DNA of 64,000 bases from Escherichia coli. GTDB taxonomy: Bacteria > Pseudomonadota > Gammaproteobacteria > Enterobacterales > Enterobacteriaceae. Under the pieces are notes generated by a model that had not been told where the DNA came from, ran no database searches, and saw only the letters and a program-made list of their open reading frames with translations. The stretch lies in assembly GCF_024502345.1 (NCBI RefSeq), contig NZ_JALDNN010000001.1; one strand, given 5' to 3'. Of this stretch, positions 2,439-64,000 are shown piece after piece; position 1 is the first letter of the stretch, and every line of letters starts with the position of its first letter. The translations under genes were made by a program, and so were the position numbers.

Positions 2439-3290
2439 ATGAGTAGTTTGTTGTTGTTTAACGATAAGAGCAGGGCACTGCAGGCGGATATCGTCGCCGT
2501 GCAGTCGCAGGTAGTGTACGGCAGCGTAGGCAACAGCATTGCCGTGCCTGCTATCAAACAGAACGGCCTGAATGTCTTTGCCGTGCCGACGGTATTGCTG
2601 AGCAATACGCCGCATTATGACACTTTCTACGGTGGTGCGATTCCGGACGAATGGTTTAGCGGCTATTTGCGTGCGCTTCAGGAGCGTGATGCGCTGCGCC
2701 AACTTCGTGCTGTAACCACGGGCTATATGGGAACGGCATCGCAAATCAAAATCCTTGCCGAGTGGCTGACTGCGCTACGCAAAGACCATCCTGATCTATT
2801 GATCATGGTCGATCCGGTGATTGGCGATATTGATAGCGGAATTTATGTCAAACCTGACCTTCCCGAGGCGTATCGACAATATTTACTGCCGCTGGCGCAG
2901 GGAATTACCCCCAATATCTTTGAGCTGGAAATCCTGACCGGTAAAAATTGCCGCGATCTCGACAGTGCCATTGCTGCCGCAAAAAGTCTGCTTTCAGACA
3001 CACTAAAATGGGTGGTGATTACCAGCGCCTCCGGTAATGAAGAAAATCAGGAGATGCAGGTTGTGGTGGTCACTGCCGACAGCGTGAATGTCATTTCCCA
3101 TTCACGGGTAAAAACCGACCTGAAAGGGACTGGCGACCTGTTTTGTGCTCAGCTCATCAGTGGCTTGCTGAAAGGGAAGGCGTTAACCGATGCGGTGCAC
3201 CGCGCGGGGTTGCGCGTACTGGAAGTGATGCGCTACACCCAGCAGCATGAGAGCGATGAATTGATTTTGCCGCCGCTGGCGGAAGCATAA
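2439..3290 (+). CDS. pdxK: pyridoxal/pyridoxine/pyridoxamine kinase
   Basis: 283-aa ORF, ribokinase-like fold motifs, RBS aaggagaaaaaa upstream; conserved position next to crr. Confidence 0.92.
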
Positions 3291-3320
3291 AAAAATGGCG
3301 CCGATGGGCGCCATTTTTCA
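3291..3320. terminator. bidirectional rho-independent terminator between convergent pdxK and crr
   Basis: aaaaaaatggcgccgatgggcgccattttt: perfect hairpin flanked by A-run and T-run. Confidence 0.75.
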
Positions 3321-3332
3321 CTGCGGCAAGAA

Positions 3333-3842
3333 TTACTTCTTGATGCGGATAACCGGGGTTTCACCCACGGTTACGCTACCGGACAGTTTGATCAGTTCTT
3401 TGATTTCGTCCATGTTGGAGATAACAACCGGAGTCAGGGTAGACTTGGCTTTCTCTTCCAGCAGCGGCAGATCAAATTCAATGACAGTATCGCCAACTTT
3501 CACGCGCTGACCTTCTTCAGCAATACGCTTGAAGCCTTCGCCTTTCAGTTCAACGGTGTCGATACCGAAGTGGACGAACAGTTCAACGCCGCTATCAGAT
3601 TCGATAGAGAATGCGTGGTTGGTTTCAAAGATTTTACCAATGGTACCGTCTACAGGCGCGACCATTTTGTTACCCGTTGGTTTGATAGCAATACCATCAC
3701 CAACGATTTTTTCCGCAAAAACGACATCCGGCACGTCTTCGATATTGACGATCTCGCCAGAGAGCGGAGCAATGATCTCAATAGTTCCGGTATCCTTCTT
3801 GTCGTCGGAAACCAGAGATTTCAGTTTATCGAACAAACCCAT
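3333..3842 (-). CDS. crr: PTS glucose-specific EIIA component (EIIA-Glc)
   Basis: 169-aa translation [16 protein letters not shown]...VIRIKK matches EIIA-Glc. Confidence 0.97.
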
Positions 3843-3882
3843 GATCTTCTCCTAAGCAGTAAATTGGGCCGCATCTCGTGGA

Positions 3883-5610
3883 TTAGCAGATTGTTTTTTC
3901 TTCAATGAACTTGTTAACCAGCGTCATTAACTCGTCCGTTGTCGGTTGAGCAAGAGCCTGCTCTGCTAACACCTTCGCATCTTCGAAGTTCGTGTTACGG
4001 ATAATCTTCTTAATGCGCGGGATAGAAATGGCGCTCATAGAGAATTCGTCCAGACCCATCCCCAGCAACAGAAGTGTAGCACGTTCATCGCCAGCAAGCT
4101 CACCACACATGCCAGTCCATTTGCCTTCAGCATGAGAAGCATCAATAACTTGCTTGATCAAGTTCAGCACGGACGGTGACATTGGCTGGTAAAGGTGTGA
4201 AATCATATCATTACCACGGTCAACTGCCAGAGTGTACTGCGTTAAATCATTGGTGCCGATACTAAAGAAATCAACTTCTTTGGCTAAATGACGTGCAATT
4301 GTTGCGGCAGCCGGTGTTTCCACCATTACGCCGATTTCAATTGACTCGTCAAACGCTTTACCTTCGTCGCGCAGTTCCTGTTTGTAGATTTCGATCTCTT
4401 TGCGCAGTGCACGCACTTCTTCAACAGAGATGATCATCGGGAACATAATGCGCAATTTACCGAAAGCCGAGGCACGCAGGATAGCGCGGAGCTGATCGCG
4501 CAGGATCTCTTTACGATCCATCGCGATACGGATAGCGCGCCAGCCGAGGAACGGGTTCTCTTCTTTCGGGAAGTTCATGTATGGCAGCTCTTTGTCGCCG
4601 CCGATGTCCATGGTACGAACGATAACCGCCTGCGAGCCACACGCTTCAGCCACTGCTTTGTAAGCAGCAAACTGTTCTTCTTCAGTGGGCAGCGCGTCGC
4701 GGTCCATGAACAGGAACTCAGTACGATACAGACCAACGCCTTCAGCGCCGTTACGCTCTGCACCTTCAACGTCACGAACCGTACCAATGTTAGCGCATAC
4801 TTCTACCTGGTGACCGTCCAGCGTAATAGCTGGCAGATCTTTCAGTTTAGCAAGCTCTGCTTTTTCAGAAGCCACTTGCTCCTGAACAGCGCGCATTTTA
4901 TCAATAACTTCGTTGGTTGGATTGACGTAAACCTGATTATTTACGGCATCCAGAATCAGATAGTCGTCATTTTTCACCTGAGAGGTGACGCTACCGGTAC
5001 CCACGATAGCAGGCAGTTCCAGAGAACGCGCCATGATAGAGGTGTGGGAAGTACGGCCACCCGCGTCGGTGATGAAACCCAGCACCTTCTTCAGGTTCAG
5101 CTGTGCGGTTTCGGACGGCGTCAGGTCAGCGGCAACCAGAATGACTTCATCCTGAATGGCGCTCAGGTCGATAATCTTCAGGCCCAGGATGTTGCGCAGC
5201 AGGCGCTTACCGATATCACGTACGTCAGCCGCACGTTCTTTCAGGTATTCATCATCCAGCTCTTCCAGGGCAGAAGCCTGACCTTCGATAACTTCATGAG
5301 CAGCTGCGTCAGCTGTCATGTGCTTATCTTTAATCAGGGCTATGATTTCCTGCTCCAGCTCCTCATCTTCGAGCAGCATAATATGCCCTTCAAAGATGGC
5401 TTCTTTTTCTTCACCGAACGTTTCACCAGCTTTCGTTTTGATCGTTTCCAGCTGGGCTGATGCCTTGGCACGACCGCTCAGAAAACGTTCAACTTCCTGA
5501 TCAACCTGGTCGGCAGAAATTTTTTTCCGGTCAATGACAATTTCGTCTTCTTTCAGAAGCAGAGCTTTACCGAAAGCGATACCCGGGGATGCTAAAATGC
5601 CTGAAATCAT
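3883..5610 (-). CDS. ptsI: PTS enzyme I (phosphoenolpyruvate-protein phosphotransferase)
   Basis: 575-aa translation [19 protein letters not shown]... with PEP-utilising enzyme motifs; immediately downstream of ptsH. Confidence 0.97.
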
Positions 5611-5654
5611 AACCCTACCTTACTTGTGACTGATTTTTAAAAGAACCCGGGAAA

Positions 5655-5912
5655 TTACTCGAGTTCCGCCATCAGTTTAACCAGATGTTCAACCGCTTTC
5701 TGCTCGTCTTCGCCTTCTGCGGAGATAGTCACAACGGTACCTTGAGTCAGGCCCAGAGTCTGCAGTTTAAACAGGCTTTTCGCGCTGGCGCTTTTGCCGT
5801 TGGAAGTCACAGTAATTTCAGAAGTGAAGCCCTTAGCTTCTTTTACAAACTGGGCAGCAGGGCGGGTGTGCAGACCGTTCGGAGCGGTAATGGTAACTTC
5901 TTGCTGGAACAT
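5655..5912 (-). CDS. ptsH: PTS phosphocarrier protein HPr
   Basis: 85-aa translation [23 protein letters not shown]... (active-site His15 context). Confidence 0.97.
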
Positions 5913-6240
5913 TGTATTTCCCCAACTTATAGGTTTAGTGTTGTGGAACTAAAGTCTAGCCTGGCGGTTCGACTTTAGCCTGTATTGTTAGCGCCAGTTT
6001 TTAACAGACGCGACGCACGAAGAGCGCAATACAGTCCATTGCTGGCGGGTGTTGACCGCTGACGTTTCGTACGTCATTAAACATTATGCCGCTAAAGGAA
6101 GAATTGAACCAAATCATAAAATCGATTCAGCTTTGGCTTTTCCTGTAACGATTAATTTCGCGCATCAAAATAATTAGTCTGGTTAAATACCAGTTCCGAC
6201 AGGCTGAATCAATGCCAGGAGGGGCGAAAGTTTGAAGCAG
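5913..6240 (-). promoter_or_regulatory. ptsHI-crr upstream control region (position only)
   Basis: About 330 bp non-coding between the cysK terminator and the ptsH start; in K-12 this interval carries the CRP/Mlc-regulated ptsH promoters. Individual sites were not mapped here. Confidence 0.4.
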
Positions 6241-6244
6241 GCCA

Positions 6245-6276
6245 CAAAAAAGCACCTAAAAAGGTGCTTTTTTACG
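6245..6276 (-). terminator. rho-independent terminator downstream of cysK
   Basis: aaaaaagcacctaaaaaggtgcttttttac hairpin with flanking A/T runs just past the cysK stop. Confidence 0.7.
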
Positions 6277-6295
6277 CATTTTTAACAAGCTGGCA

Positions 6296-7267
6296 TTACT
6301 GTTGCAATTCTTTCTCAGTGAAGAGATCGGCAAACAATGCGGTGCTTAAATAACGCTCACCCGATGATGGTAGAATAACCACAATATTCTTGTTGGTAAA
6401 GCTTTCATCTTCTTGTAGTTTCAACGCCGCGGCAACAGCTGCTCCAGAAGAGATACCTGCAAGAATACCTTCTTCTTCCATTAGACGACGGGCGGTAGAA
6501 ATGGCTTCTTCATTGGTGATGCCAATGACTTTATCGACCAGCTTGAGATCGAGGTTAGCCGGGATAAAACCAGCGCCAATACCCTGAATTTTATGCGGGC
6601 CAGGTTTAATCTCTTCACCTGCCAGCGCCTGGGCGATAACTGGAGAATCGGTTGGCTCAACGGCGACAGAGATAAGATCGGTCTTTCCTTTGGTGCCTTT
6701 AATGTAGCGGCTGACGCCAGTCAGCGTACCGCCAGTCCCAACGCCAGCAATAAATACATCAACCTGACCGTCGGTATCTTCCCAGATCTCCGGACCGGTG
6801 GTCTTTTCGTGAATTTCAGGGTTTGCCGGATTGCTGAATTGTTGCAGCAGCAGGTATTTCTCTGGATTGCTGGCGACAATTTCTTCTGCTTTTTGGATTG
6901 CGCCTTTCATGCCTTTAGCACCTTCGGTCAGCACCAGGTTTGCACCTAACGCTTTCAGCAGCTTGCGGCGTTCAATACTCATGGTTTCTGGCATGGTCAG
7001 GGTGAGTTTGTAACCGCGAGCGGCAGCTACATAGGCCAGTGCAATCCCGGTATTACCGCTGGTCGGTTCAACCAGTTCAACGCCTGGTTTCAGCACGCCG
7101 CGCTTTTCGGCATCCCAAATCATGTTGGCACCGATACGGCACTTAACGCTGAAGCTGGGGTTACGAGATTCCACCTTCGCCAGAATGCGTCCGTTACCGA
7201 TGCGATTCAGGCGAACCAGCGGCGTGTGACCGATAGTCAGCGAGTTATCTTCAAAAATCTTACTCAT
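6296..7267 (-). CDS. cysK: cysteine synthase A (O-acetylserine sulfhydrylase A)
   Basis: 323-aa translation [20 protein letters not shown]... with PLP lysine motif SVKCRIG. Confidence 0.97.
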
Positions 7268-7451
7268 GGCCTGTCCTTAACTGTATGAAATTGGGATACA
7301 ACAGGTAGCATACCCGCTCAGAGAATATGCGGAAGTAAGGATTTAGCATATCTATATACAGAAGGGAAATAATGACATGCAAGATGGAATAAGGGGCGGC
7401 ATAAGCCACCCCTGTTCCACACAAACGGTTTACAAAATAACCGGTAGATTG

Positions 7452-8213
7452 TTACCGCCACATCGCGTGTTTATCGCGATAGCAATCGACCCACATCGCC
7501 GTCGCGCCACAAACGGCAACGGGCATGATGAACAGATTAAGCAGCGGGATCATCGTAAACAGGCTGGTTAAAGCACCAAACTGCATATTGGTGATTTTGC
7601 GTGTGCGCAGGGCGGTGCGCATCTCTTTAAACGGTACTTTGTGGTTATCGAAGGGGTAATCGCAATACTGGATGGCTAACATCCAGGCGCTAAACAGGAA
7701 CCACAGTACCGGCGCGACGGTTTGCCCAATACCAGGGATGAAGTAAAGAATTAGCAATACAATTGCGCGTGGCAGATACCAGGCAAATTTTTGCCATTCG
7801 CGTTTCATGATTCGCGGCACATCTTTCATGATACCGAAAATCCCGGTATCTGGCGGTGTAGCGCCAGTCAATCGTGCTTCCAGTTGTTCAGCCAATAAAC
7901 CGTTAAACGGAGCGGCAATCCAGTTAGCAATCGTGGAGAAGAAATAGCCAAACACTAACAGCACAGAGATGACAGCCAGAGGCCACAACAGATAGCTCAG
8001 CCATTGTAACCAGTCCGGAACATAACTCATGAGAGTCGGGATCCAGACATCGAGTTGCGTAAAGAGCCACCAGAATGCGCCCCCCATCAACAAAATATTG
8101 ACCAGCAGCGGTAAAATAACGAAACGCCGAATCCCAGGTTGCGAGACGAGCTTCCAGCCTTGCGCAAAATAGTAAAAACCGCTGCGTGGGGCAGATGTGA
8201 ATGATGAAACCAT
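7452..8213 (-). CDS. cysZ: sulfate transporter CysZ
   Basis: 253-aa polytopic membrane protein; conserved position between cysK and zipA. Confidence 0.93.
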
Positions 8214-8442
8214 AATCAGGATGAGCTCCTTTTGACCAATCCCAGGAAAATTGTGCGTATTTTACCGGGTAATTGCGCAATGGACAGTTAGGATATGTTC
8301 GAAAAAACAGCAAAAAGCACGATTTCATCTATCTTTGTGCTGTGAAAGTTAATAGTGCACTTGCACTTGAGGTAATCGGCAAATACTCTTAGTGAGTAAA
8401 TGTTTGCCGTGGTGGCAAGGTGTTAGAACAACAGAGAATATA

Positions 8443-12831: not shown

Positions 12832-13758
12832 ATGAATTATTCTTTAAAACAATTAAAGGTTTTCGTCACAGTAGCGCAGGAGAAAAGTTTTAGTCGTGCA
12901 GGAGAGCGTATCGGCCTGAGCCAGTCGGTAGTAAGTCACAGTGTGAAGGAGCTGGAAAATCATACTGGTGTTCGCCTGCTGGACAGAACCACGCGTGAAG
13001 TGGTGCTTACAGATGCAGGGCAGCAGTTGGCTTTGCGTCTTGAGCGACTGCTGGATGAACTTAACAGCACGTTGCGCGATACCGGGCGTATGGGGCAACA
13101 ACTGAGCGGAAAAGTTCGGGTCGCTGCCAGCCAGACCATTTCCGCGCATCTTATTCCGCAATGCATTGCTGAAAGCCATCGCCGCTATCCAGATATTCAG
13201 TTTGTCCTGCACGATCGTCCGCAGCAGTGGGTGATGGAAAGTATTCGCCAGGGAGATGTCGACTTTGGCATCGTCATCGATCCAGGCCCAGTGGGCGATC
13301 TGCAATGTGAAGCGATTCTTTCCGAGCCTTTCTTTCTGCTTTGCCATCGCGATAGCGCTTTGGCCGTGGAAGATTATGTACCCTGGCAGGCATTACAGGG
13401 AGCGAAATTGGTGTTGCAGGATTACGCGTCAGGCAGCCGACCGCTGATTGACGCAGCGCTGGCGCGCAATGGTATTCAGGCGAATATTGTGCAGGAGATT
13501 GGACATCCGGCGACGCTGTTCCCGATGGTAGCCGCAGGCATCGGCATCAGTATTCTTCCCGCACTGGCGCTACCATTGCCTGAAGGTAGCCCACTGGTGG
13601 TAAAGCGCATTACGCCGGTTGTTGAACGCCAGTTGATGCTGGTGCGCAGGAAGAACCGTTCACTTTCCACCGCCGCTGAAGCGTTATGGGACGTGGTACG
13701 AGACCAGGGCAATGCGCTAATGGCTGGTCGGGAAGGGGATCCGTTGTATCAGATATAG
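12832..13758 (+). CDS. yfeR: LysR-family transcriptional regulator YfeR
   Basis: 308 aa; N-terminal HTH ([23 protein letters not shown]) and LysR substrate-binding domain; divergent from yfeH. Confidence 0.9.
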
Positions 13759-14090
13759 ATATCGATATGAGTCGTATTTTCAACAGGATTTAGAAGGGAT
13801 ACATTCAGAGACAAACGCTGCTCTTTCTCCTGCGCCTTTTCTGCCTGCTGTCTCTGCAACTGCGCCAGTTGTGTTTCCAGTAGGGTGATTTGCTGTTGAA
13901 TCAATTCGGCCTGTTTTTGTTTGTCTTCAGCACTGCCGCCAGTGTCTACAATCTCTTTAATTTGTTGAGTGAGTTTGATGATTTGCTGACTTATCCGCGC
14001 GATTTGTGAAGCAACATCGCTACCTTGTGATGCCCTGTTACTACTCTGTGTTTGTATGGAAGGAATTGAAGTTGAAGAGATAGTGGCCAT
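13749..14090 (-). CDS. hypothetical small Q-rich coiled-coil protein, possibly FlxA-like
   Basis: 113-aa ORF with good RBS (gaggactgaacaATG); S/T-rich N-terminus then heptad-like Q/E/K-rich region. It sits where K-12 has yfeN-xapABR. Confidence 0.45.
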
Positions 14091-14167
14091 TGTTCAGTCC
14101 TCGTCACTGTACGAGGTAATATCGGTAGAAGAACAAGGAACTTGAGAAGAAAAATCAATCTTACAAA

Positions 14168-16882: not shown

Positions 16883-17227
16883 TTATTTGCTATCGCGAAT
16901 CCCTAAGCGTTGTAACAATCCGATAATCCCTTCCCGCAGAAGCAAGGATGTAAACTGTTTTTGTTCAACTGGCGTCATCTCTTTCGCCAGTGTCACCAGC
17001 AATACTTCAAGCGGCGCATCACCAGAAAGGGCAGGCGCTTCTCCCTGACCTTCTGGACGTTCAGCATTACGAATATATTCACGAACCTGTTCATTGACGT
17101 GAACCAGTCGGGCTTTGCCACCCTGGACGCCTGGTTTTGGTGACGTCGTCCAGCCTTCCTTGCGTACCCATTTATTAATGGTCTGGCGGCTATAGCCGGT
17201 CAGTCTGGCAAGTTCATCTGGCGTCAT
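16883..17227 (-). CDS. yfeC: putative HTH DNA-binding protein YfeC
   Basis: Start MTPDELARLTGYSRQTINKWVRKEGW; the ORF track begins 5 codons upstream at 17242. Clear paralog of yfeD. Confidence 0.82.
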   Translation of the reverse strand: MTPDELARLTGYSRQTINKWVRKEGWTTSPKPGVQGGKARLVHVNEQVREYIRNAERPEGQGEAPALSGDAPLEVLLVTLAKEMTPVEQKQFTSLLLREGIIGLLQRLGIRDSK

Positions 17228-17462
17228 CCTCTCCTTGAACATAACAATTCCCTGAATGTATGTGGGTCTATTAGTAGTTCATTTTATAGCACCACTTTAC
17301 AGGAAACCGTGACATGAATAACTACTGAATGCGAGCGGTTTTCCAAAATTGTTCATTTGCCTGATTTTTCAGCGATTGAAACTACACGCTGCAATTTGCC
17401 GTTGACACATTCGGGCGGAATTCATATGATGCCGCCCGTCAACTCGACAAGCTTTACGTGAC

Positions 17463-17538
<76 letters not shown>

Positions 17539-17566
17539 AATTTTGCACCCAGCAAATTTGGTACGT

Positions 17567-17642
<76 letters not shown>

Positions 17643-17654
17643 TAGCTCCACCAA

Positions 17655-17682
17655 ATTTCCAACCCTCGCTGCAAAGCGGGGG
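17655..17682 (+). terminator. rho-independent terminator after the tRNA-Ala pair
   Basis: ccctcgctgcaaagcgggggttttttg. Confidence 0.7.
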
Positions 17683-17860
17683 TTTTTTGTCTCTGCTTTT
17701 TGCCGCTTTTGTAATACAGTCTACGTCCGGGTTAGTGCCGCCTGGTGAAAGCATCATTGGATGAAAAATCGGCAACAGGCTGGCCCCTGTTTGCTTCGCG
17801 ATGCGAATAAACTTATTATTTGTGTGCCTGAAAACCCCGATCAGTGAGAGTAGTGTACTC

Positions 17861-20050
17861 ATGTTTGTGGAGCATAACCTGATAAAAAATATCAAGATAT
17901 TCACACTAGCGTTTACGCTCACCGTGGTACTTATTCAGCTATCCCGTTTTATTTCGCCACTTGCCATTATCCATTCCAGTTATATCTTTCTGGCGTGGAT
18001 GCCACTGTGCGTAATGCTGTCAATCTTGTTTATCTTTGGCTGGCGCGGTGTCGTTCCCGTTTTATGCGGGATGTTTTGCACCAATCTGTGGAACTTTCAT
18101 CTCTCTTTTTTACAGACTGCGGTCATGCTCGGCAGCCAGACGTTTGTCGTGTTGTGTGCCTGCGCAATATTACGCTGGCAGCTGGGGACGCGTTGGCGTT
18201 ATGGATTGACCAGCCGATATGTCTGGCAACGTCTGTTCTGGCTTGGTTTGGTGACGCCGATCGGCATCAAATGCAGCATGTATCTTGTGGGGAGCTTCTT
18301 TGATTTCCCGCTAAAGATATCCACCTTTTTCGGCGATGCGGATGCCATTTTCACGGTCGTTGATTTGCTAAGCCTTTTCACCGCTGTGCTGATTTACAAC
18401 ATGCTTTTCTACTATCTCACTCGCATGATTGTAAGTCCCCACTTTGCGCAGATATTGTGGCGCAGGGATATCGCTCCGTCGTTGGGCAAAGAGAAACGCG
18501 CATTTACCTTAAGCTGGCTGGCAGCGTTAAGCGTGCTGCTACTTCTGTTGTGCACACCTTATGAAAACGACTTTATTGCCGGTTACCTGGTACCCGTTTT
18601 CTTCATCATCTTTACCCTCGGGGTCGGTAAGCTTCGCTATCCGTTTTTAAATCTCACTTGGGCTGTTTCAACGCTTTGCCTGCTGAATTACAACCAGAAC
18701 TTTTTGCAAGGGGTGGAAACGGAATATTCGCTGGCATTTATTCTCGCGGTGCTGATTTCCTTTAGCGTTTGCCTGCTCTATATGGTGCGCATTTATCATC
18801 GCAGTGAATGGCTTAATCGCCGCTGGCATTTGCAGGCGCTGACCGATCCGTTAACGCTCCTACCCAACTTTCGTGCGTTGGAACAAGCACCGGAGCAAGA
18901 GGTGGGCAAGAGTTTTTGCTGCCTGCGCATTGATAATCTTGAGTTTATGAGTCGTCATTACGGCTTAATGATGCGCGTTCACTGTATCCGCTCAATTTAC
19001 CGTACGCTGCTGCCGTTGATGCAGGAAAACGAAAAGTTGTATCAATTGCCGGGTAGTGAACTGCTGTTAGTGCTGAGCGGGCCGGAAACGGAAGGGCGAC
19101 TCCAGCATATGGTTAACATCCTGAATAGTCGGCAAATTCACTGGAACAATACCGGGCTGGATATGGGCTATGGTGCTGCCTGGGGGCGTTTTGATGGAAA
19201 TCAGGAAACCCTGCAACCCTTGTTGGGGCAGTTAAGCTGGCTGGCGGAGCAATCCTGCGCACATCATCATGTGCTGGCGCTGGATAGCCGAGAGGAGATG
19301 GTTTCCGGGCAGACCACTAAACAAGTGCTATTGCTGAATACCATTCGCACGGCGTTAGATCAGGGGGATTTGCTGCTCTACGCCCAGCCAATTCGCAACA
19401 AAGAGGGTGAAGGTTATGATGAGATCCTCGCGCGACTGAAATATGACGGCGGCATTATGACCCCGGATAAGTTTCTGCCCCTTATTGCTCAGTTTAACCT
19501 TAGCGCGCGTTTTGATTTGCAAGTGCTGGAGTCCTTGTTGAAGTGGCTGGCAACACACCCTTGCGACAAAAAAGGCCCGCGCTTTTCAGTTAATTTAATG
19601 CCGCTCACGCTGCTGCAAAAGAATATTGCCGGGCGGATTATTCGTCTATTTAAGCGTTATCACATCTCCCCGCAGGCGGTCATTCTTGAGATCACCGAGG
19701 AGCAGGCGTTTTCTAACGCAGAAAGCAGCATGTACAACATCGAGCAGCTGCATAAGTTTGGTTTCCGGATTGCGATTGATGACTTTGGCACCGGCTATGC
19801 CAACTACGAACGGTTAAAGCGTTTGCAGGCTGATATCATCAAAATTGATGGCGTCTTTGTGAAAGATATTGTCACGAATACGCTGGATGCGATGATTGTG
19901 AGATCAATTACCGATCTGGCGAAAGCGAAGTCATTGAGTGTGGTCGCGGAGTTTGTCGAGACGCAACAGCAACAGGCGCTATTGCATAAGCTCGGGGTGC
20001 AATATCTGCAAGGGTATTTGATTGGTCGCCCGCAGCCATTAGCTGATTAA
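17861..20050 (+). CDS. pdeA: c-di-GMP phosphodiesterase with N-terminal membrane sensor domain and C-terminal EAL domain, YfeA/PdeA
   Basis: Multiple N-terminal transmembrane helices and C-terminal EAL-type region (…ILEITEEQAF…, …DDFGTGYANYERLKRL…); start MFVEHNL chosen over the upstream ATG at 17801. Confidence 0.88.
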   Translation: MFVEHNLIKNIKIFTLAFTLTVVLIQLSRFISPLAIIHSSYIFLAWMPLCVMLSILFIFGWRGVVPVLCGMFCTNLWNFHLSFLQTAVMLGSQTFVVLCACAILRWQLGTRWRYGLTSRYVWQRLFWLGLVTPIGIKCSMYLVGSFFDFPLKISTFFGDADAIFTVVDLLSLFTAVLIYNMLFYYLTRMIVSPHFAQILWRRDIAPSLGKEKRAFTLSWLAALSVLLLLLCTPYENDFIAGYLVPVFFIIFTLGVGKLRYPFLNLTWAVSTLCLLNYNQNFLQGVETEYSLAFILAVLISFSVCLLYMVRIYHRSEWLNRRWHLQALTDPLTLLPNFRALEQAPEQEVGKSFCCLRIDNLEFMSRHYGLMMRVHCIRSIYRTLLPLMQENEKLYQLPGSELLLVLSGPETEGRLQHMVNILNSRQIHWNNTGLDMGYGAAWGRFDGNQETLQPLLGQLSWLAEQSCAHHHVLALDSREEMVSGQTTKQVLLLNTIRTALDQGDLLLYAQPIRNKEGEGYDEILARLKYDGGIMTPDKFLPLIAQFNLSARFDLQVLESLLKWLATHPCDKKGPRFSVNLMPLTLLQKNIAGRIIRLFKRYHISPQAVILEITEEQAFSNAESSMYNIEQLHKFGFRIAIDDFGTGYANYERLKRLQADIIKIDGVFVKDIVTNTLDAMIVRSITDLAKAKSLSVVAEFVETQQQQALLHKLGVQYLQGYLIGRPQPLAD

Positions 20051-20058
20051 CAGGCGTA

Positions 20059-20091
20059 AAAAACCGGGGAATTATCCCCGGCTTTTTTATG
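20059..20091. terminator. bidirectional terminator between convergent pdeA and nupC
   Basis: aaaaaccggggaattatccccggctttttt. Confidence 0.75.
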
Positions 20092-20098
20092 TATGGTC

Positions 20099-21301
20099 TT
20101 ACAGCACCAGTGCTGCGATTGACGCAGACAGCACACTCACCAGGGTAGAGCCGTAAACCAGTTTCAGACCGAAGCGAGAAACCACATTACCTTGCTCTTC
20201 ATTCAGGCCTTTAACTGCACCTGCGATAATCCCGATTGAAGAGAAGTTAGCGAAGGAAACCAGGAACACAGAGATGATGCCTTCAGCACGCGGAGAGAGC
20301 GTGGAAGCAATTTTCTGCAGATCCATCATCGCAACGAACTCGTTAGAAACCAGTTTGGTCGCCATGATACTGCCCACTTGCAGTGCTTCGCTGGACGGAA
20401 CACCCATCACCCATGCAATCGGATAGAAGATGTAGCCCAGGATGCCCTGGAAGGAGATGCTGTAGCCAAACCAGCCAGTCACGGTGGCAAACAGTGCGTT
20501 CAGCGCGGCGATCAGGGCGATAAAGCCAATCAGCATTGCGGCAACGATAATGGCAACTTTGAAACCTGCCAGAATGTATTCACCCAGCATTTCGAAGAAG
20601 CTCTGACCTTCGTGCAGGTTGGACATCTGAATGTTTTCTTCACTGGCATCAACACGGTAAGGGTTGATCAGCGACAGCACGATAAAGGTGCTGAACATAT
20701 TCAGTACCAGCGCTGCAACGACATATTTCGGCTCCAGCATGGTCATGTATGCACCAACGATGGACATCGACACGGTGGACATCGCCGTTGCTGCCATGGT
20801 GTACATACGATTACGGGAGATTTTGCCGAGGATATCTTTATAGGCAATAAAGTTTTCAGACTGACCCAGAATCAGGGAGCTGACGGCGTTAAAGGATTCC
20901 AGTTTGCCCATGCCGTTGACTTTGGAGAGCAGGAAACCAATTGCGCGGATAATCACCGGCAACACGCGAATGTGCTGGAGAATACCGATCAGTGCAGAGA
21001 TAAAGACGATTGGGCACAGCACTTTCAGGAAGAAGAATGCCAGGCCTTGATCATTCATGCTACCAAAGACGAAGTTAGTCCCTTCGTTGGCAAATCCGAG
21101 CAGTTTTTCGAACATTTCGGAGAAGCCTTTCACGAAGCCTAAACCAACGTCGGAGTTCAGGAAGAACCACGCCAGTAACACTTCGATAACAAGCAGTTGA
21201 ATAACATAACGGATACGAATTTTTTTGCGGTCGCTGCTTACCAGCAGTGCGAGAATCGCAACAACGGCAAGTGCCAGTACAAAATGAAGGACGCGGTCCA
21301 T
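20099..21301 (-). CDS. nupC: nucleoside:H+ symporter NupC
   Basis: 400-aa product starting [20 protein letters not shown]; concentrative nucleoside transporter family. Confidence 0.95.
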
Positions 21302-21627
21302 ATTTGCTCCAAATATGAGGCAGGTTAAATTTCCGTGCACATTCTATGTAACATGGTTAAGGAAAACGAGATCTGACACACACTATAATGACGTCCTGTG
21401 ACAAGCTTCAAAAATAGTGAGCTGTCATACATTTCTGCTATGTTGTGTATGGAAGCTGAAAGTTATGTAAATGTGCTAACATTAAACATAACCATAACAT
21501 TCAAGTCATCAATCTTTTCGTAGTCATAATCCTGGTCTATCAGAGAAATCACCACAATCCATTTAAATGTATTTGATAATCATTCTCGTTTGACATAGCA
21601 TGAAACATAGCAAAGGCTATGTTTTAG

Positions 21628-22875
<1,248 letters not shown>

Positions 22876-49849: not shown

Positions 49850-50906
49850 GGCTTTGTTGAATAAATCAGATTTCGGGTAAGTCTCCCCCGTAGCGGGTTG
49901 TGTTTTCAGGCAATACGCACGCTTTCAGGCATACCTGCTTTCGTCATTTTGTTCAGCGCTCGTACCAGGGCCATAGCCTCTGCAACCTGACCATCGTAGT
50001 CACGCAGTGTCAGTGAACCCCCGAACAGCTGTTTTACCCGGTACATCGCCGTTTCCGCTATCGAGCGACGGTTGTAATCTGTTGTCCATTTCCACCGCGC
50101 ATTACTCCCGGTCATTCGCTGATTAGCCACTGCACGGTTACGGTCTGCATATTCACCGGGCCAGTAACCCGCACCTTTTCGGGGAGGGATAAGCGCGCTG
50201 ATTTTCTTACGCCGCAGTTCATCGTGACATAGCCGGGTATCGTAAGCGCCATCGGCGGCGGCTGACCTGATTTTCCGGTGGGTTTGCCGGATTAACCCGG
50301 GGAAGGCCTCTGAGTCCGTAACGTTGTTCAGCGACAGGTCAGCGCAGATGATTTCATGTGTTTTACTGTCAACGGCGAGATGCAGCTTACGCCAGATACG
50401 GCGGCGTTCCTGGCCATGCTTTTTGACTTTCCACTCGCCTTCACCGAAGACCTTCAGCCCGGTGGAATCAATTACCAGGTGTGCGATTTCACCCCGGGTG
50501 GGCGTTTTGAAACTGACATTAACCGACTTTGCCCGCCTGCTGACACAGCTGTAATCCGGGCAGCGTAGCGGAACGTTCATCAGAGAAAAAATGGAATCAA
50601 TAAAGCCCTGCGCAGCGCGCAGGGTCAGCCTGAATACGCGTTTAATGACCAGCACAGTCGTGATGGCAAGGTCAGAATAGCGCTGAGGTCTGCCTCGTGA
50701 AGAAGGTGTTGCTGACTCATACCAGGCCTGAATAGCTTCATCATCCAGCCAGAAAGTTATGGAGCCACGGTTGATGAGGGCTTTATTGTAGGTGGGCCAG
50801 TTGGTGATTTTGAACTTTTGCTTTGCCACGGAACGGTCTGCGTTGTCGGGAAGATACGTGATCTGATCCTTCAACTCAGCAAAAGTTCGATTTATTCAAC
50901 AAAGCC
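49850..50906 (-). mobile_element. IS903-like insertion sequence (IS5 family), 1057 bp
   Basis: 18-bp perfect terminal inverted repeats ggctttgttgaataaatc (left) and gatttattcaacaaagcc (right) bracket a single transposase ORF. The 9 bp on either side are unrelated (acgtagtgg vs cggtcaaaa), so there is no target-site duplication. Confidence 0.88.
49906..50874 (-). CDS. IS903-type DDE transposase
   Basis: 322-aa ORF (MKDQITYLPDNADRSVAKQKFKITNW…) with IS5-family catalytic region (…DGAYD…, …YNRRSIAETAMYRVK…); the true start may be internal. Confidence 0.85.
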   Translation of the reverse strand: MKDQITYLPDNADRSVAKQKFKITNWPTYNKALINRGSITFWLDDEAIQAWYESATPSSRGRPQRYSDLAITTVLVIKRVFRLTLRAAQGFIDSIFSLMNVPLRCPDYSCVSRRAKSVNVSFKTPTRGEIAHLVIDSTGLKVFGEGEWKVKKHGQERRRIWRKLHLAVDSKTHEIICADLSLNNVTDSEAFPGLIRQTHRKIRSAAADGAYDTRLCHDELRRKKISALIPPRKGAGYWPGEYADRNRAVANQRMTGSNARWKWTTDYNRRSIAETAMYRVKQLFGGSLTLRDYDGQVAEAMALVRALNKMTKAGMPESVRIA

Positions 50907-61045: not shown

Positions 61046-61387
61046 TTAACCTGACATCCACTCACGCACCCATCTCGATACTTGCACTGCAAATTTTGGA
61101 GATAGCCACTGAGCTAAATTAATTGCGATGTCTGGATGAACCCAAGTCCCTTGATTCTCTGCTCTTCCGCCTTTAAATGATTGAATTAACTCCGATATGG
61201 GAATCCCCATATCGCGTGATAATTCATCAAAAAAATCTTGTGTTGTTTTTAGTCGTGTATAGTCAGCAAGTAGCTTCCCCGCAGACTTGCACATCGCGGT
61301 GGCATTGATGTATCCGTCTTTGGTGCGAAGATGGATGACTTCTCCATCAACTTCTCTAGCGATTAATGCAAGTTGAAATTGTGTCAT
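61046..61387 (-). CDS. KilA-N-domain protein in the rexA position, immediately downstream of cI
   Basis: 113-aa ORF with KilA-N hallmark segments (…DGYINATAMCKSAGKLLADY… and …GTWVHPDIAINLAQWLSPKFAVQVSRWV…); 31 bp from the cI stop, same strand. Confidence 0.65.
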   Translation of the reverse strand: MTQFQLALIAREVDGEVIHLRTKDGYINATAMCKSAGKLLADYTRLKTTQDFFDELSRDMGIPISELIQSFKGGRAENQGTWVHPDIAINLAQWLSPKFAVQVSRWVREWMSG

Positions 61388-61418
61388 AAATCATCCTATT
61401 ACGTGAAAAATAAAACAA

Positions 61419-62135
<717 letters not shown>

Positions 62136-62142
62136 TTAAATC

Positions 62143-62206
62143 TATCACCGCAAGGGATAAACTTCTAACACCGTGCGTGTTGACTATTTTACCTCTAGCG
62201 GTGATA
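62143..62206. promoter_or_regulatory. lambda-type right operator oR3-oR2-oR1 with pRM/pR
   Basis: tatcaccgcaagggata (OR3), taacaccgtgcgtgttg (OR2), tacctctagcggtgata (OR1, one change from lambda) between divergent cI and cro. Confidence 0.88.
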
Positions 62207-62232
62207 ATGGTTGCCTGTACTAAGGAGGTTGT

Positions 62233-62433
62233 ATGGAACAACGCATAACCCTGAAAGATTATGCAATACGCTTTGGGCAAACCAAGACGGCTAAAGATCT
62301 CGGCGTATATCAAAGCGCGATTAACAAGGCCATTCATGCAGGCCGAAAGATTTTTTTAACTATAAACGCTGATGGAAGCGTTTATGCGGAAGAAATAAAG
62401 CCCTTCCCAAGTAACAAAAAAACAACTGCATAA
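62233..62433 (+). CDS. cro: lambda-type Cro repressor
   Basis: 66-aa translation [66 protein letters not shown], two substitutions from recalled lambda Cro; RBS taaggaggttgtATG. Confidence 0.93.
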
Positions 62434-62440
62434 GTAACAC

Positions 62441-62486
62441 CGCTCTTTTCACAATGGACATTCGTCCTACGTCGCTGACAAAGCGA
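62441..62486 (+). promoter_or_regulatory. nutR-like site: boxA-like cgctcttt plus P22-type boxB hairpin
   Basis: cgctcttttcac… then tcgctgacaaagcga (5-bp stem, GACAA loop), unlike the lambda boxB gccctgaaaaagggc. Confidence 0.5.
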
Positions 62487-62570
62487 GCCCCAAGATATCT
62501 GACCAACTAAGGCCATATGCGTTTCCACGCATACCTTTCAACTAACTATTCACTATTGGAAAATTAACAA

Positions 62571-62867
62571 ATGACACAAGCAAGTTATAGCAAGCCAACA
62601 CAGCGAGAAATTGATCGCGCTGAAACTGATTTACTCATCAACCTGTCAACGCTTACCCAGCGCGGTCTGGCAAAGATGATTGGCTGTCATGAATCGAAGA
62701 TAAGCAGAACGGACTGGAGATTTATTGCTTCGGTCTTGTGTGCTTTCGGAATGGCATCAGACATCAGTCCGATTAGCAGGGCTTTTAAGTATGCATTGGA
62801 TGGAATCACAAAGAAAAAATCCCCGGCTGCCACCGAGGATTCTGAGCAAATTGATATGCAATTCTGA
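62571..62867 (+). CDS. cII: CII-like transcriptional activator (divergent from lambda CII)
   Basis: 98-aa ORF in the cII position; C-terminus KKSPAATEDSEQIDMQF parallels lambda CII KKRPAATERSEQIQMEF, the rest is divergent. Confidence 0.6.
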   Translation: MTQASYSKPTQREIDRAETDLLINLSTLTQRGLAKMIGCHESKISRTDWRFIASVLCAFGMASDISPISRAFKYALDGITKKKSPAATEDSEQIDMQF

Positions 62868-62888
62868 GGGAATTACTGGATCAATCCA

Positions 62889-63062
62889 CAGGAGTAATTA
62901 TGACAAAACGTCGTAAGAAATACCAGGAAAAAGAAGAGATTCGACACCCTGATTCACCTGAGGGATTAGTGGTAGCCGCAGCAAATAACAGGGCGTTCGC
63001 AGAGCGCCTTGTTGGTGTTTACAGACTAGCCAAAGCAGGAGTGAAACATGGGCGTCGTTAAG
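62889..63062 (+). CDS. hypothetical small basic protein (58 aa)
   Basis: ORF MTKRRKKYQEKEEIRHPDSPEGL… with RBS acaggagtaattATG; stop overlaps the start of the next ORF. Below the ORF-track cutoff. Confidence 0.35.
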
Positions 63063-64000
63063 TTAGCTGATTACAGGCCTCAACTGGAGGTCGTGGAGCA
63101 TCGCGTGGCAGATACCGAAGATGGTTTCATGCGCGTTGCTAACGAGATTACTCAATATCCAGACCAGATTGAATCCGTTCGTAAAGGCATGGGATTCATT
63201 GATGAAGACCAGCGTAATTCTATCGGCACCTTAGCGGCTGGCGCACGCCTTGCGTCATCGTCTCCAGAAGCAATGCAATCATGGCTGCAAAACAACGCCG
63301 GTGAGTTAGCTCGTGTTGGCGTTAATCCTCATGACGTCGCTCAGATGTACCAACAGAACCCGCGGCAGTTCGTCGAATTTGTCGATCACCTGGGGATGAA
63401 CAGTCTCGGGCCCGAAAAATACTTTGACCTACAGGATAAAATGCAGGGTCGCCAGGTTACCATGCGCGGTCAGGATCTGGATTCGCAAACCGCCGCTCGG
63501 AATCAGGCAATCACAATGCGCGGACAAGATATCCAGGCGAATTTAGGTCAGCAGCGCATTAATCTGGACGCAGAAACAAACCGCATTAACAACGAAAATA
63601 AGCGCCTTGACCGGATGCTATCAGCAGAAACTAACGACCTGAAGCGCCAGGAAATACAGAGCCGCATAGCAGCCAACAACCAGCAGTTGCAGCAGAAGCA
63701 GCAAGCGCTAAATGATGGCTACAAAGACGGCATCAACACCCTCACAACCAGCATGTTCACTCTGAACGATATCGTTAGTTCTCCTTCACTTAAGAGCATT
63801 ACAGGCTTACGTGGAGTAATCCCCAACGTTCCAGGCTCACAGGCTGCAGACACTCAGGCACGACTTGATACCTTTAAATCACAAGCATACCTGACAGCGG
63901 TTCAGGCCATGCGAGGCATGGGCGCACTTTCTGATGCCGAGGGCAAAAAGCTCGACCAGGCTGTTGGTTCGCTGCAGAACTCGCAGAGCGAGGAGTCCTT
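63048..64000 (+). CDS. hypothetical phage protein, 3' end outside window; Q-rich with internal tandem repeat
   Basis: Frame open from ATG at 63048 (RBS aggagtgaaacATG) to the window end (over 317 codons); contains repeats TMRGQDLDSQ / TMRGQDIQAN; no similarity to lambda O. Confidence 0.5.
   Translation, partial: MGVVKLADYRPQLEVVEHRVADTEDGFMRVANEITQYPDQIESVRKGMGFIDEDQRNSIGTLAAGARLASSSPEAMQSWLQNNAGELARVGVNPHDVAQMYQQNPRQFVEFVDHLGMNSLGPEKYFDLQDKMQGRQVTMRGQDLDSQTAARNQAITMRGQDIQANLGQQRINLDAETNRINNENKRLDRMLSAETNDLKRQEIQSRIAANNQQLQQKQQALNDGYKDGINTLTTSMFTLNDIVSSPSLKSITGLRGVIPNVPGSQAADTQARLDTFKSQAYLTAVQAMRGMGALSDAEGKKLDQAVGSLQNSQSEES

Follow-up and report, generated by a model that had tools for sequence, protein, structure and literature searches.

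The 48-bp spacer between the convergent genes pdeA and nupC in the stretch of Escherichia coli DNA analysed here (64,000 nucleotides, contig NZ_JALDNN010000001.1; hereafter the window) is, with a probability of roughly 0.9, an intact and most likely never interrupted intergenic region that carries a predicted shared terminator, the core of which is a target of the insertion sequence IS186, and the strain simply lacks the insertion. This reading builds on direct observation of the anatomy of the spacer, of where precisely the element entered in K-12 and which bases it duplicated there, of the match to the target motif and of the frequencies of the site states among complete genomes. We infer that the empty state of the window is probably ancestral and not the product of precise excision, and that at the pdeA/nupC locus the K-12 reference, not the window, would represent the derived state.

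The pdeA (yfeA) coding sequence occupies positions 17861-20050 on the + strand (729 aa plus stop; ORF list, Pfam and RefSeq annotation), and nupC occupies positions 20099-21301 on the - strand (400 aa plus stop; ORF list, TIGR00804 and Pfam). Pfam analysis of the pdeA product returned MASE1 (227 bits), EAL (201 bits) and a weak GGDEF match, and the protein is a predicted MASE1/degenerate GGDEF/EAL c-di-GMP phosphodiesterase. The nupC product, a nucleoside:H+ symporter, scored 487 bits against the TIGR00804 nupC model (cut-off 442) and carries the Nucleos_tra2_N, Gate and Nucleos_tra2_C domains. RefSeq uses both gene names as well for a genome with 100% identity across 1.2 kb, and nupC corresponds to the RefSeq protein WP_000376337.1 in a near-identical genome. 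The stop codon of pdeA ends at 20050 (+) and that of nupC is 20099-20101 (-), and the sequence between these ORF ends is the spacer at 20051-20098, exactly the convergent arrangement with only 48 bp between the genes that the original prediction had described. Its further statement that no IS186 copy separates the two genes holds as well: an element with a transposase gene is absent from the 48-bp spacer, and a search of the whole 64-kb window for the IS186 terminal inverted repeats (22-23 bp, (C)ATAAGCGCTAACTTAAGGGTTG) found none with up to 3 mismatches allowed.

The spacer is built around one hairpin. An A6 tract at 20058-20063, the complement of which is the predicted U-tract of the nupC terminator on the - strand, is followed by the hairpin at 20064-20081, with CCGGGGA as one stem arm, ATTA as the loop and TCCCCGG as the other arm, and by a T6 tract at 20083-20088, the predicted U-tract of the pdeA terminator on the + strand. 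Consensus scanning called a terminator at 20064-20081 on each strand (7 pairs, 6 of them G-C, with a loop of 4), 13 nt from the pdeA stop and about 10-17 nt from the nupC stop. Folding of the 48-nt spacer gave -23.7 kcal/mol (z = -5.0) for the + strand and -20.8 kcal/mol (z = -5.7) for the - strand, and 0 of 200 shuffles folded as well in either case. Scan calls and strong folds on both strands uphold the bidirectional terminator proposed for this interval, and the spacer would be a textbook intrinsic terminator of this kind, with termination in vivo likely for both genes. An Rfam scan of positions 17000-22000 returned two tRNA-Ala genes only and no match in the spacer, a result that is expected if the spacer is a terminator but lends it no support.

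Comparison with K-12 located the insertion precisely. The annotation of NC_000913.3 places "insertion sequence:IS186C" at 2514273-2515617, including insL3 (b2394), with nupC (b2393) on one side and pdeA (b2395) on the other, so the IS186 copy that the original prediction placed in this interval of MG1655 is indeed present. The two stop codons lie 1398 bp apart in K-12 rather than equally close, vs 48 bp in the window. Removal of the 1337-bp IS186 and of one copy of GGGAATTATCCC from the K-12 interval restores the spacer of the window except for the A tract, which is A7 in K-12-type alleles and A6 in the window. Junction analysis placed the K-12 element inside the hairpin and not elsewhere, in agreement with the target-site reading. 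The 12-bp GGGAATTATCCC is present once in the window, at 20067-20078, and twice, flanking IS186, in K-12 and all other occupied genomes examined (junctions of K-12, 510016, FAM21845, LB858871 and 100248); since the termini of the element (C...G) match the target, a duplication length anywhere from 10 to 12 bp fits the data. At the K-12 IS186C junctions no terminator-like site was detected, and the folds there were not significant (z = -0.05 and -0.6).

The hairpin core of the window, GGGG-AATTAT-CCCC (GGGGAATTATCCCC, 20066-20079), is an unoccupied and perfect N6 match to the IS186 target motif 5'-GGGG(N6/N7)CCCC-3' defined by Lee et al. (2016, Nucleic Acids Res 44:7109; PMC5009759), who counted only 54 such sites in K-12 and found that IS186 inserts in either orientation and hits the same site repeatedly. 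It is the single match to GGGG(N6)CCCC or GGGG(N7)CCCC in the 64-kb window. The flanking sequences of IS186A and IS186B in K-12 place these copies likewise within GGGG-N6-CCCC sites. We thus propose that one G+C-rich hairpin between an A-tract and a T-tract would serve as the Rho-independent terminator of both pdeA and nupC, and that the IS186 transposase recognises its core as a canonical target. IS186 has inserted in the middle of this hairpin, with duplication of GGGAATTATCCC, in K-12 and in about 17% of sequenced E. coli; the insertion parts each gene from its predicted U-tract and breaks up the hairpin on either side of the element.

In a survey of site states that covered 5,426 complete E. 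coli genomes, the site is empty, as in the window, in about 4,430 (82%). IS186 occupies it in the K-12 orientation in 476 genomes and, at the same base pair and with the same GGGAATTATCCC duplication, in the opposite orientation in 465. IS4 lies within the same hairpin in two genomes, those of strains 23CRST047 and 23CRST049, with a 13-bp duplication (GGGAATTATCCCC). In strain 100248 IS186 is inserted in a different spacer allele, and this insertion, as judged from the sequence, is beyond doubt an independent event. IS186 is present anywhere in the genome in 2209 of the 5426. At least 40 natural isolates, among them NCTC86, UMNF18 and G3/10, combine an empty site with flanks that match K-12 at 100% across 1600 bp, a count obtained with a reconstructed query of 1600 bp that is too short for bridging across an IS. 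Empty versus IS186-occupied is an ordinary strain polymorphism of this site, and one that is already documented. A search of the available literature returned no paper with both IS186 and nupC, and searches on IS186 with terminators or hotspots and on IS4/IS186 target sites led no further than Lee et al. (2016).

Two other explanations of the empty site were weighed. IS elements are a classic source of short-read assembly errors, and the adjacency of pdeA and nupC could in principle be an artefact in which a repeated IS186 copy collapsed out of the assembly. A collapsed repeat, however, normally breaks the contig, whereas the site here is seamless and retains the duplicated bases exactly once; the independently finished, complete genome NZ_CP109924.1, which is 99.975% identical to positions 1-40701 of the window, shows the same 48-bp spacer, and the empty state is common to more than 4400 complete genomes. 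Collapse was rejected on these three grounds and has a next to negligible chance of being correct. The other explanation, that the site was formerly occupied as in K-12 and was emptied secondarily by precise excision of the element together with one duplication copy, predicts exactly the sequence observed in the window, and the empty sites on 1600-bp flanks identical to those of K-12 imply recent gain or loss on that haplotype, on which both IS186 orientations are also present. We nevertheless consider it very improbable. Lee et al. (2016; PMC5009759) recorded 1 excision vs 758 insertions among 857 IS events, the empty state is found in 82% of genomes, and IS186 occurs at all in only 2209 of 5426. 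The haplotype of the window is, moreover, unlike all IS-bearing haplotypes examined, with A6 instead of A7 and a divergence of 0.9-1.7% from K-12. A spacer that IS186 probably never entered is accordingly preferred. An exact-match search for outgroups with the hairpin 25-mer AACCGGGGAATTATCCCCGGCTTTT found it in no other Escherichia species representative and adds nothing on the ancestral state; its sole match, on a low-coverage contig of 289 bp from an assembly of Alkalicoccobacillus porphyridii, presumably stems from E. coli contamination.

The nearly equal numbers of the two orientation classes (476 vs 465 genomes) could also suggest that a single ancestral insertion gave rise to both when it was inverted in place by recombination between its 23-bp terminal inverted repeats, the empty state being the only "unhit" one. 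The classes share the base pair, the 12-bp duplication and, after reverse-complementing, the IS sequence (1337/1337), and their flanks are identical, with 0 differences in 1500 + 1100 bp between K-12 and LB858871, which carry IS186 in opposite orientations; this position-by-position count covers K-12-type loci only, as indels shift the window out of register with them. The shared IS sequence is nevertheless uninformative on inversion versus independent insertion, because all IS186 copies compared (IS186A, B and C of K-12 and those of FAM21845, LB858871 and 100248) are identical over 1337 nt. Against inversion, independent insertions in both orientations at a single GGGG(N6)CCCC site were observed directly in mutation-accumulation lines (PMC5009759), many empty sites lie on the same haplotype as occupied ones, the insertion of strain 100248 in a different allele means that the site was hit more than once, and homologous recombination works poorly on a repeat of 23-25 bp; inversion is thus unlikely. 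More doubtful still is a further idea, in which the pdeA/nupC terminator is a recurrent landing pad for the two IS4-family elements IS186 and IS4, with flipping or re-insertion frequent enough to make it a natural three-state switch. If this were true, empty, forward and reverse states would coexist on one identical local haplotype, the 3'-end context of nupC and pdeA would alternate between an undisturbed terminator, transcription that runs on into the transposase gene, and antisense transcription, and the switch would affect nucleoside uptake or c-di-GMP signalling.

The wider comparison bears on the lineage of the window, which the original prediction had called non-K-12 from the missing IS186, the absence of xapABR and the presence of a csc island. 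Identity to K-12 is 99.08% over 2163 bp on the pdeA side and 98.26% over 4132 bp on the nupC-yfeO side. The closest genome found is that of the O125ac:H10 strain C 236-04A, with 99.96-99.98% identity in the longer collinear blocks and 99.5% in the last block (1.9 kb). The K-12 genes xapR-xapB-xapA-yfeN, between the lysV tRNA cluster and yfeR, have no counterpart in the window, in which 396 bp (13760-14155) stand in place of the 4.39-kb K-12 block xapR-DUF1427-xapB-xapA-yfeN (3948-8337 of the K-12 locus compared). An intact cscR-cscA-cscK-cscB cluster lies at 53744-58629 (cscA 481, cscK 506 and cscB 594 bits); K-12 is not known to carry csc sucrose genes next to dsdA. Flank divergence together with xap and csc content confirms, at the level of sequence, that the window derives from a non-K-12 E. 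coli, and it is these features, not IS status, that carry the argument. The part of the prediction that drew on the missing IS186 needs a qualification: absence of the element does rule out K-12 itself, yet taken alone it says little about lineage, because 82% of genomes are empty, non-K-12 isolates are occupied in both orientations, and at least 40 isolates with K-12-identical flanks are empty too. The feature is K-12-specific in neither direction.

Beyond strain typing the significance of the site is slight, and even there IS186 occupancy, which varies in presence and in orientation among strains with K-12-identical flanks, is unfit as a sole lineage marker. K-12 would lack the predicted shared pdeA/nupC terminator that is common to most E. 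coli, and caution is advisable when regulation at the 3' ends of these genes is extrapolated from K-12.

The arrangement has its closest counterpart in the IS186C locus of K-12, which is the same locus with the same hairpin base pairs, and the empty-form sequences are equal bar A7/A6; the difference is that the window holds the unoccupied allele, with an interval of 48 bp vs 1398 bp. It resembles the bidirectional Rho-independent terminators of convergent bacterial genes in its G+C-rich hairpin, its A-tract and T-tract and its closeness to both stop codons, and beside the usual examples the predicted pdeA/nupC hairpin shows nothing unusual. Site-specific insertion of IS4 offers a further parallel. 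IS4 has been reported to prefer AAA-N20-TTT targets such as terminators, a pattern that the A-tract, hairpin and T-tract would fit, and IS4 proper occupies the same hairpin in 23CRST047 and 23CRST049; it is, however, a different element with a different transposase, rare at this site (2 genomes) and absent from the window. Finally, GGGGAATTATCCCC in the window is the perfect N6 form of the motif of Lee et al. (PMC5009759), and insertion in both orientations is met in natural genomes as in their lines. Whereas those authors followed new insertions in a K-12 derivative, in which the nupC-pdeA site was already filled, the present survey covers the site in natural isolates.

The convergent genes pdeA (17861-20050, + strand) and nupC (20099-21301, - strand, stop codon at 20099-20101) adjoin across a spacer of 48 bp (20051-20098), as measured from the ORF ends, with no IS186 copy between them. 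pdeA encodes 729 aa from the RefSeq start at 17861, with MASE1, weak GGDEF and EAL domains, and nupC encodes a 400-aa protein matching the NupC nucleoside transporter family above the curated cut-off; both gene names follow the annotation of a complete genome 100% identical over 1.2 kb. The spacer reads 5'-CAGGCGT-A6-CCGGGGA-ATTA-TCCCCGG-C-T6-ATGTATGGTC-3', and scanning it with a terminator consensus predicted a terminator on both strands. Folding of the 48 nt gave -23.7 kcal/mol for the + strand (z = -5.0) and -20.8 kcal/mol for the - strand (z = -5.7), with 0 of 200 shuffles as good in either case, while an Rfam scan of the spacer returned no family. Both the direct adjacency and the predicted bidirectional terminator of the original prediction were thus borne out.

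Window positions 19500-20700 were compared by megablast with the complete genomes of 5,426 E. coli strains. The match was unbroken in 4,460 of them; in the remainder, K-12 MG1655 included, it splits at the hairpin. The curated annotation of NC_000913.3 places IS186C (2514273-2515617), with insL3 (b2394), between nupC (b2393) and pdeA (b2395), and one K-12 MG1655 assembly carries an "IS4-like element IS421 family transposase" in the interval. The K-12 junctions read ...A7-CCGGGGAATTATCCC/ATAAGCGCTAACTTAAGGGTTG... and ...CAACCCTTAAGTTAGCGCTTAT/GGGAATTATCCCCGGC-T6..., giving an element of 1337 bp bracketed by two copies of GGGAATTATCCC. Anything from 10 to 12 bp can be counted as target duplication, since the C/G at the ends of the element coincide with target bases. 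Removal of the element and one repeat copy restores the spacer of the window, save for A7 in place of A6. The IS186 copy that the original prediction placed in K-12 is therefore real, and the K-12 interval is not equally short.

The target of IS186 is 5'-GGGG(N6/N7)CCCC-3', which K-12 contains only 54 times (Lee et al. 2016, PMC5009759). In that study some of these sites took repeated insertions, and the palindromic motif allowed both orientations. With GGGG-AATTAT-CCCC (20066-20079), the terminator stem matches the N6 form perfectly and provides the only GGGG(N6/N7)CCCC in the 64-kb window, so that the spacer is an unoccupied IS186 target and a predicted terminator at once. IS186A and IS186B of K-12 likewise lie inside GGGG-N6-CCCC sites, judging from their flanks. 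The K-12 insertion leaves each gene with only part of the stem and with its U-tract 1.3 kb away; the same consensus scan found no terminator at either K-12 junction, and folding of RNA across the two junctions did not surpass that of shuffled sequences (z = -0.05 and -0.6). Since insL3 has the orientation of nupC, read-through of nupC transcription into this transposase gene is plausible.

Queries of 140 bp spanning the junctions assigned 4,430 of the 5,426 genomes to the empty state, 476 to IS186 in the K-12 orientation and 465 to IS186 in the opposite orientation at the same base pair and with the same duplication (HS, ATCC 8739, C, H10407 and UMNK88 among them), which leaves about 50 genomes in other states. 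IS186 occurs somewhere in 2,209 genomes, so roughly 4 in 10 of its carriers have a copy at this site. K-12 and LB858871, which carry opposite orientations, show 0 flank differences in 1500 + 1100 bp, and the IS186 copies compared (K-12 IS186A, B and C and those of FAM21845, LB858871 and 100248) are all identical over 1337 nt; the data therefore fit independent insertion and in-place inversion alike. Strain 510016 has IS186 in the K-12 orientation (2571-3907 of its locus L005), with a one-nucleotide difference, and an internal stop makes this copy a pseudogene in the annotation; the flanks in this strain differ from K-12 at 15/1100 positions on the nupC side and 1/1500 on the pdeA side, suggesting a recombination breakpoint near the site.

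The hairpin has been hit more than once, as the allele of strain 100248 and the IS4 cases show. An alternative spacer allele, in 100248 (locus L008, 1500-1670) and EC42405 (locus L009, 1040-1200), contains an 88-bp insert with a REP-like palindrome, GCCTGATGCGCTACGCTTATCAGGCCTAC, bracketed by two hairpin copies, the first degenerate and the second perfect; it is empty in EC42405, and in 100248 the second, perfect hairpin holds IS186. IS4 proper (ends TAATGCC...GGCATTA) occupies the same hairpin in two genomes, 23CRST047/049 (locus L011, 1180-1215 and 2620-2650), with a 13-bp duplication, GGGAATTATCCCC, and flanks otherwise as in K-12. In the blood isolate XH2172 (locus L010, ~550-620), ~195 extra bp break pdeA into two pseudogene fragments.

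The window had also been assigned to a non-K-12 lineage, which its flanks (99.08% and 98.26% identity to K-12), the absence of the xap block and the presence of the csc cluster confirm. A 396-bp segment (13760-14155), holding most of a 113-aa FlxA-like ORF (13749-14090, - strand), replaces the 4.39-kb xapR-DUF1427-xapB-xapA-yfeN block that in K-12 lies between the lysV tRNA/RtT region and yfeR. The csc cluster (53744-58629; cscR +, cscA -, cscK +, cscB +) is intact and adjoins dsdA and a dsdX remnant. The closest genome found, O125ac:K+:H10 strain C 236-04A, shows a few structural differences, with 99.96-99.98% identity in the longer collinear blocks and 99.5% in the last one, of 1.9 kb; its cscB is split by ISKpn26, whereas the window lacks that element. 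The missing IS186 fits this non-K-12 assignment but by itself marks lineage only weakly, given the population data: at least 40 natural isolates, e.g. NCTC86, UMNF18 and G3/10, combine an empty site with 1600 bp of flanking sequence that is 100% identical to K-12.

An empty site could in principle also result from excision of IS186. Most genomes (4,430) are empty here, excision is rare (1/857 events; Lee et al. 2016, PMC5009759), and the window haplotype, with A6 and about 1-1.7% from K-12, is unlike every occupied haplotype inspected; on these grounds excision is very improbable, and the more parsimonious reading is that IS186 never occupied the site. As an outgroup test, the exact hairpin 25-mer was sought by exact match in representatives of other species and was absent, save for a 289-bp contig (NZ_VLXZ01000152.1, 1.4x coverage) of an Alkalicoccobacillus porphyridii assembly. 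This contig matches the pdeA/nupC hairpin of E. coli exactly and most likely reflects contamination with E. coli DNA.

Two further differences lie elsewhere in the window. An IS903-type IS5-family element (49850-50906; 34-nt imperfect terminal inverted repeats; transposase ORF 49906-50874, - strand, NF033579 match, 357 bits) stands where the near-identical complete genome NZ_CP109924.1 has 2.9 kb comprising the evgS 5' end, evgA, emrK and the emrY 5' end, which looks like an IS-associated deletion with loss of the EvgA response regulator and truncation of EvgS and EmrY. Past ~59413 (59413-64000), collinearity with NZ_CP109924.1 degrades to short 95-97% matches opposite torI and prophage-like genes, suggesting prophage or island content unlike that of NZ_CP109924.1.

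The searchable literature yielded no survey of the pdeA/nupC terminator that covers three or more allelic states. All of the elements are already described, namely the K-12 IS186C annotation, the IS186 target motif and bidirectional intrinsic terminators, and multiple states at this terminator are what one would expect from a site-specific IS.
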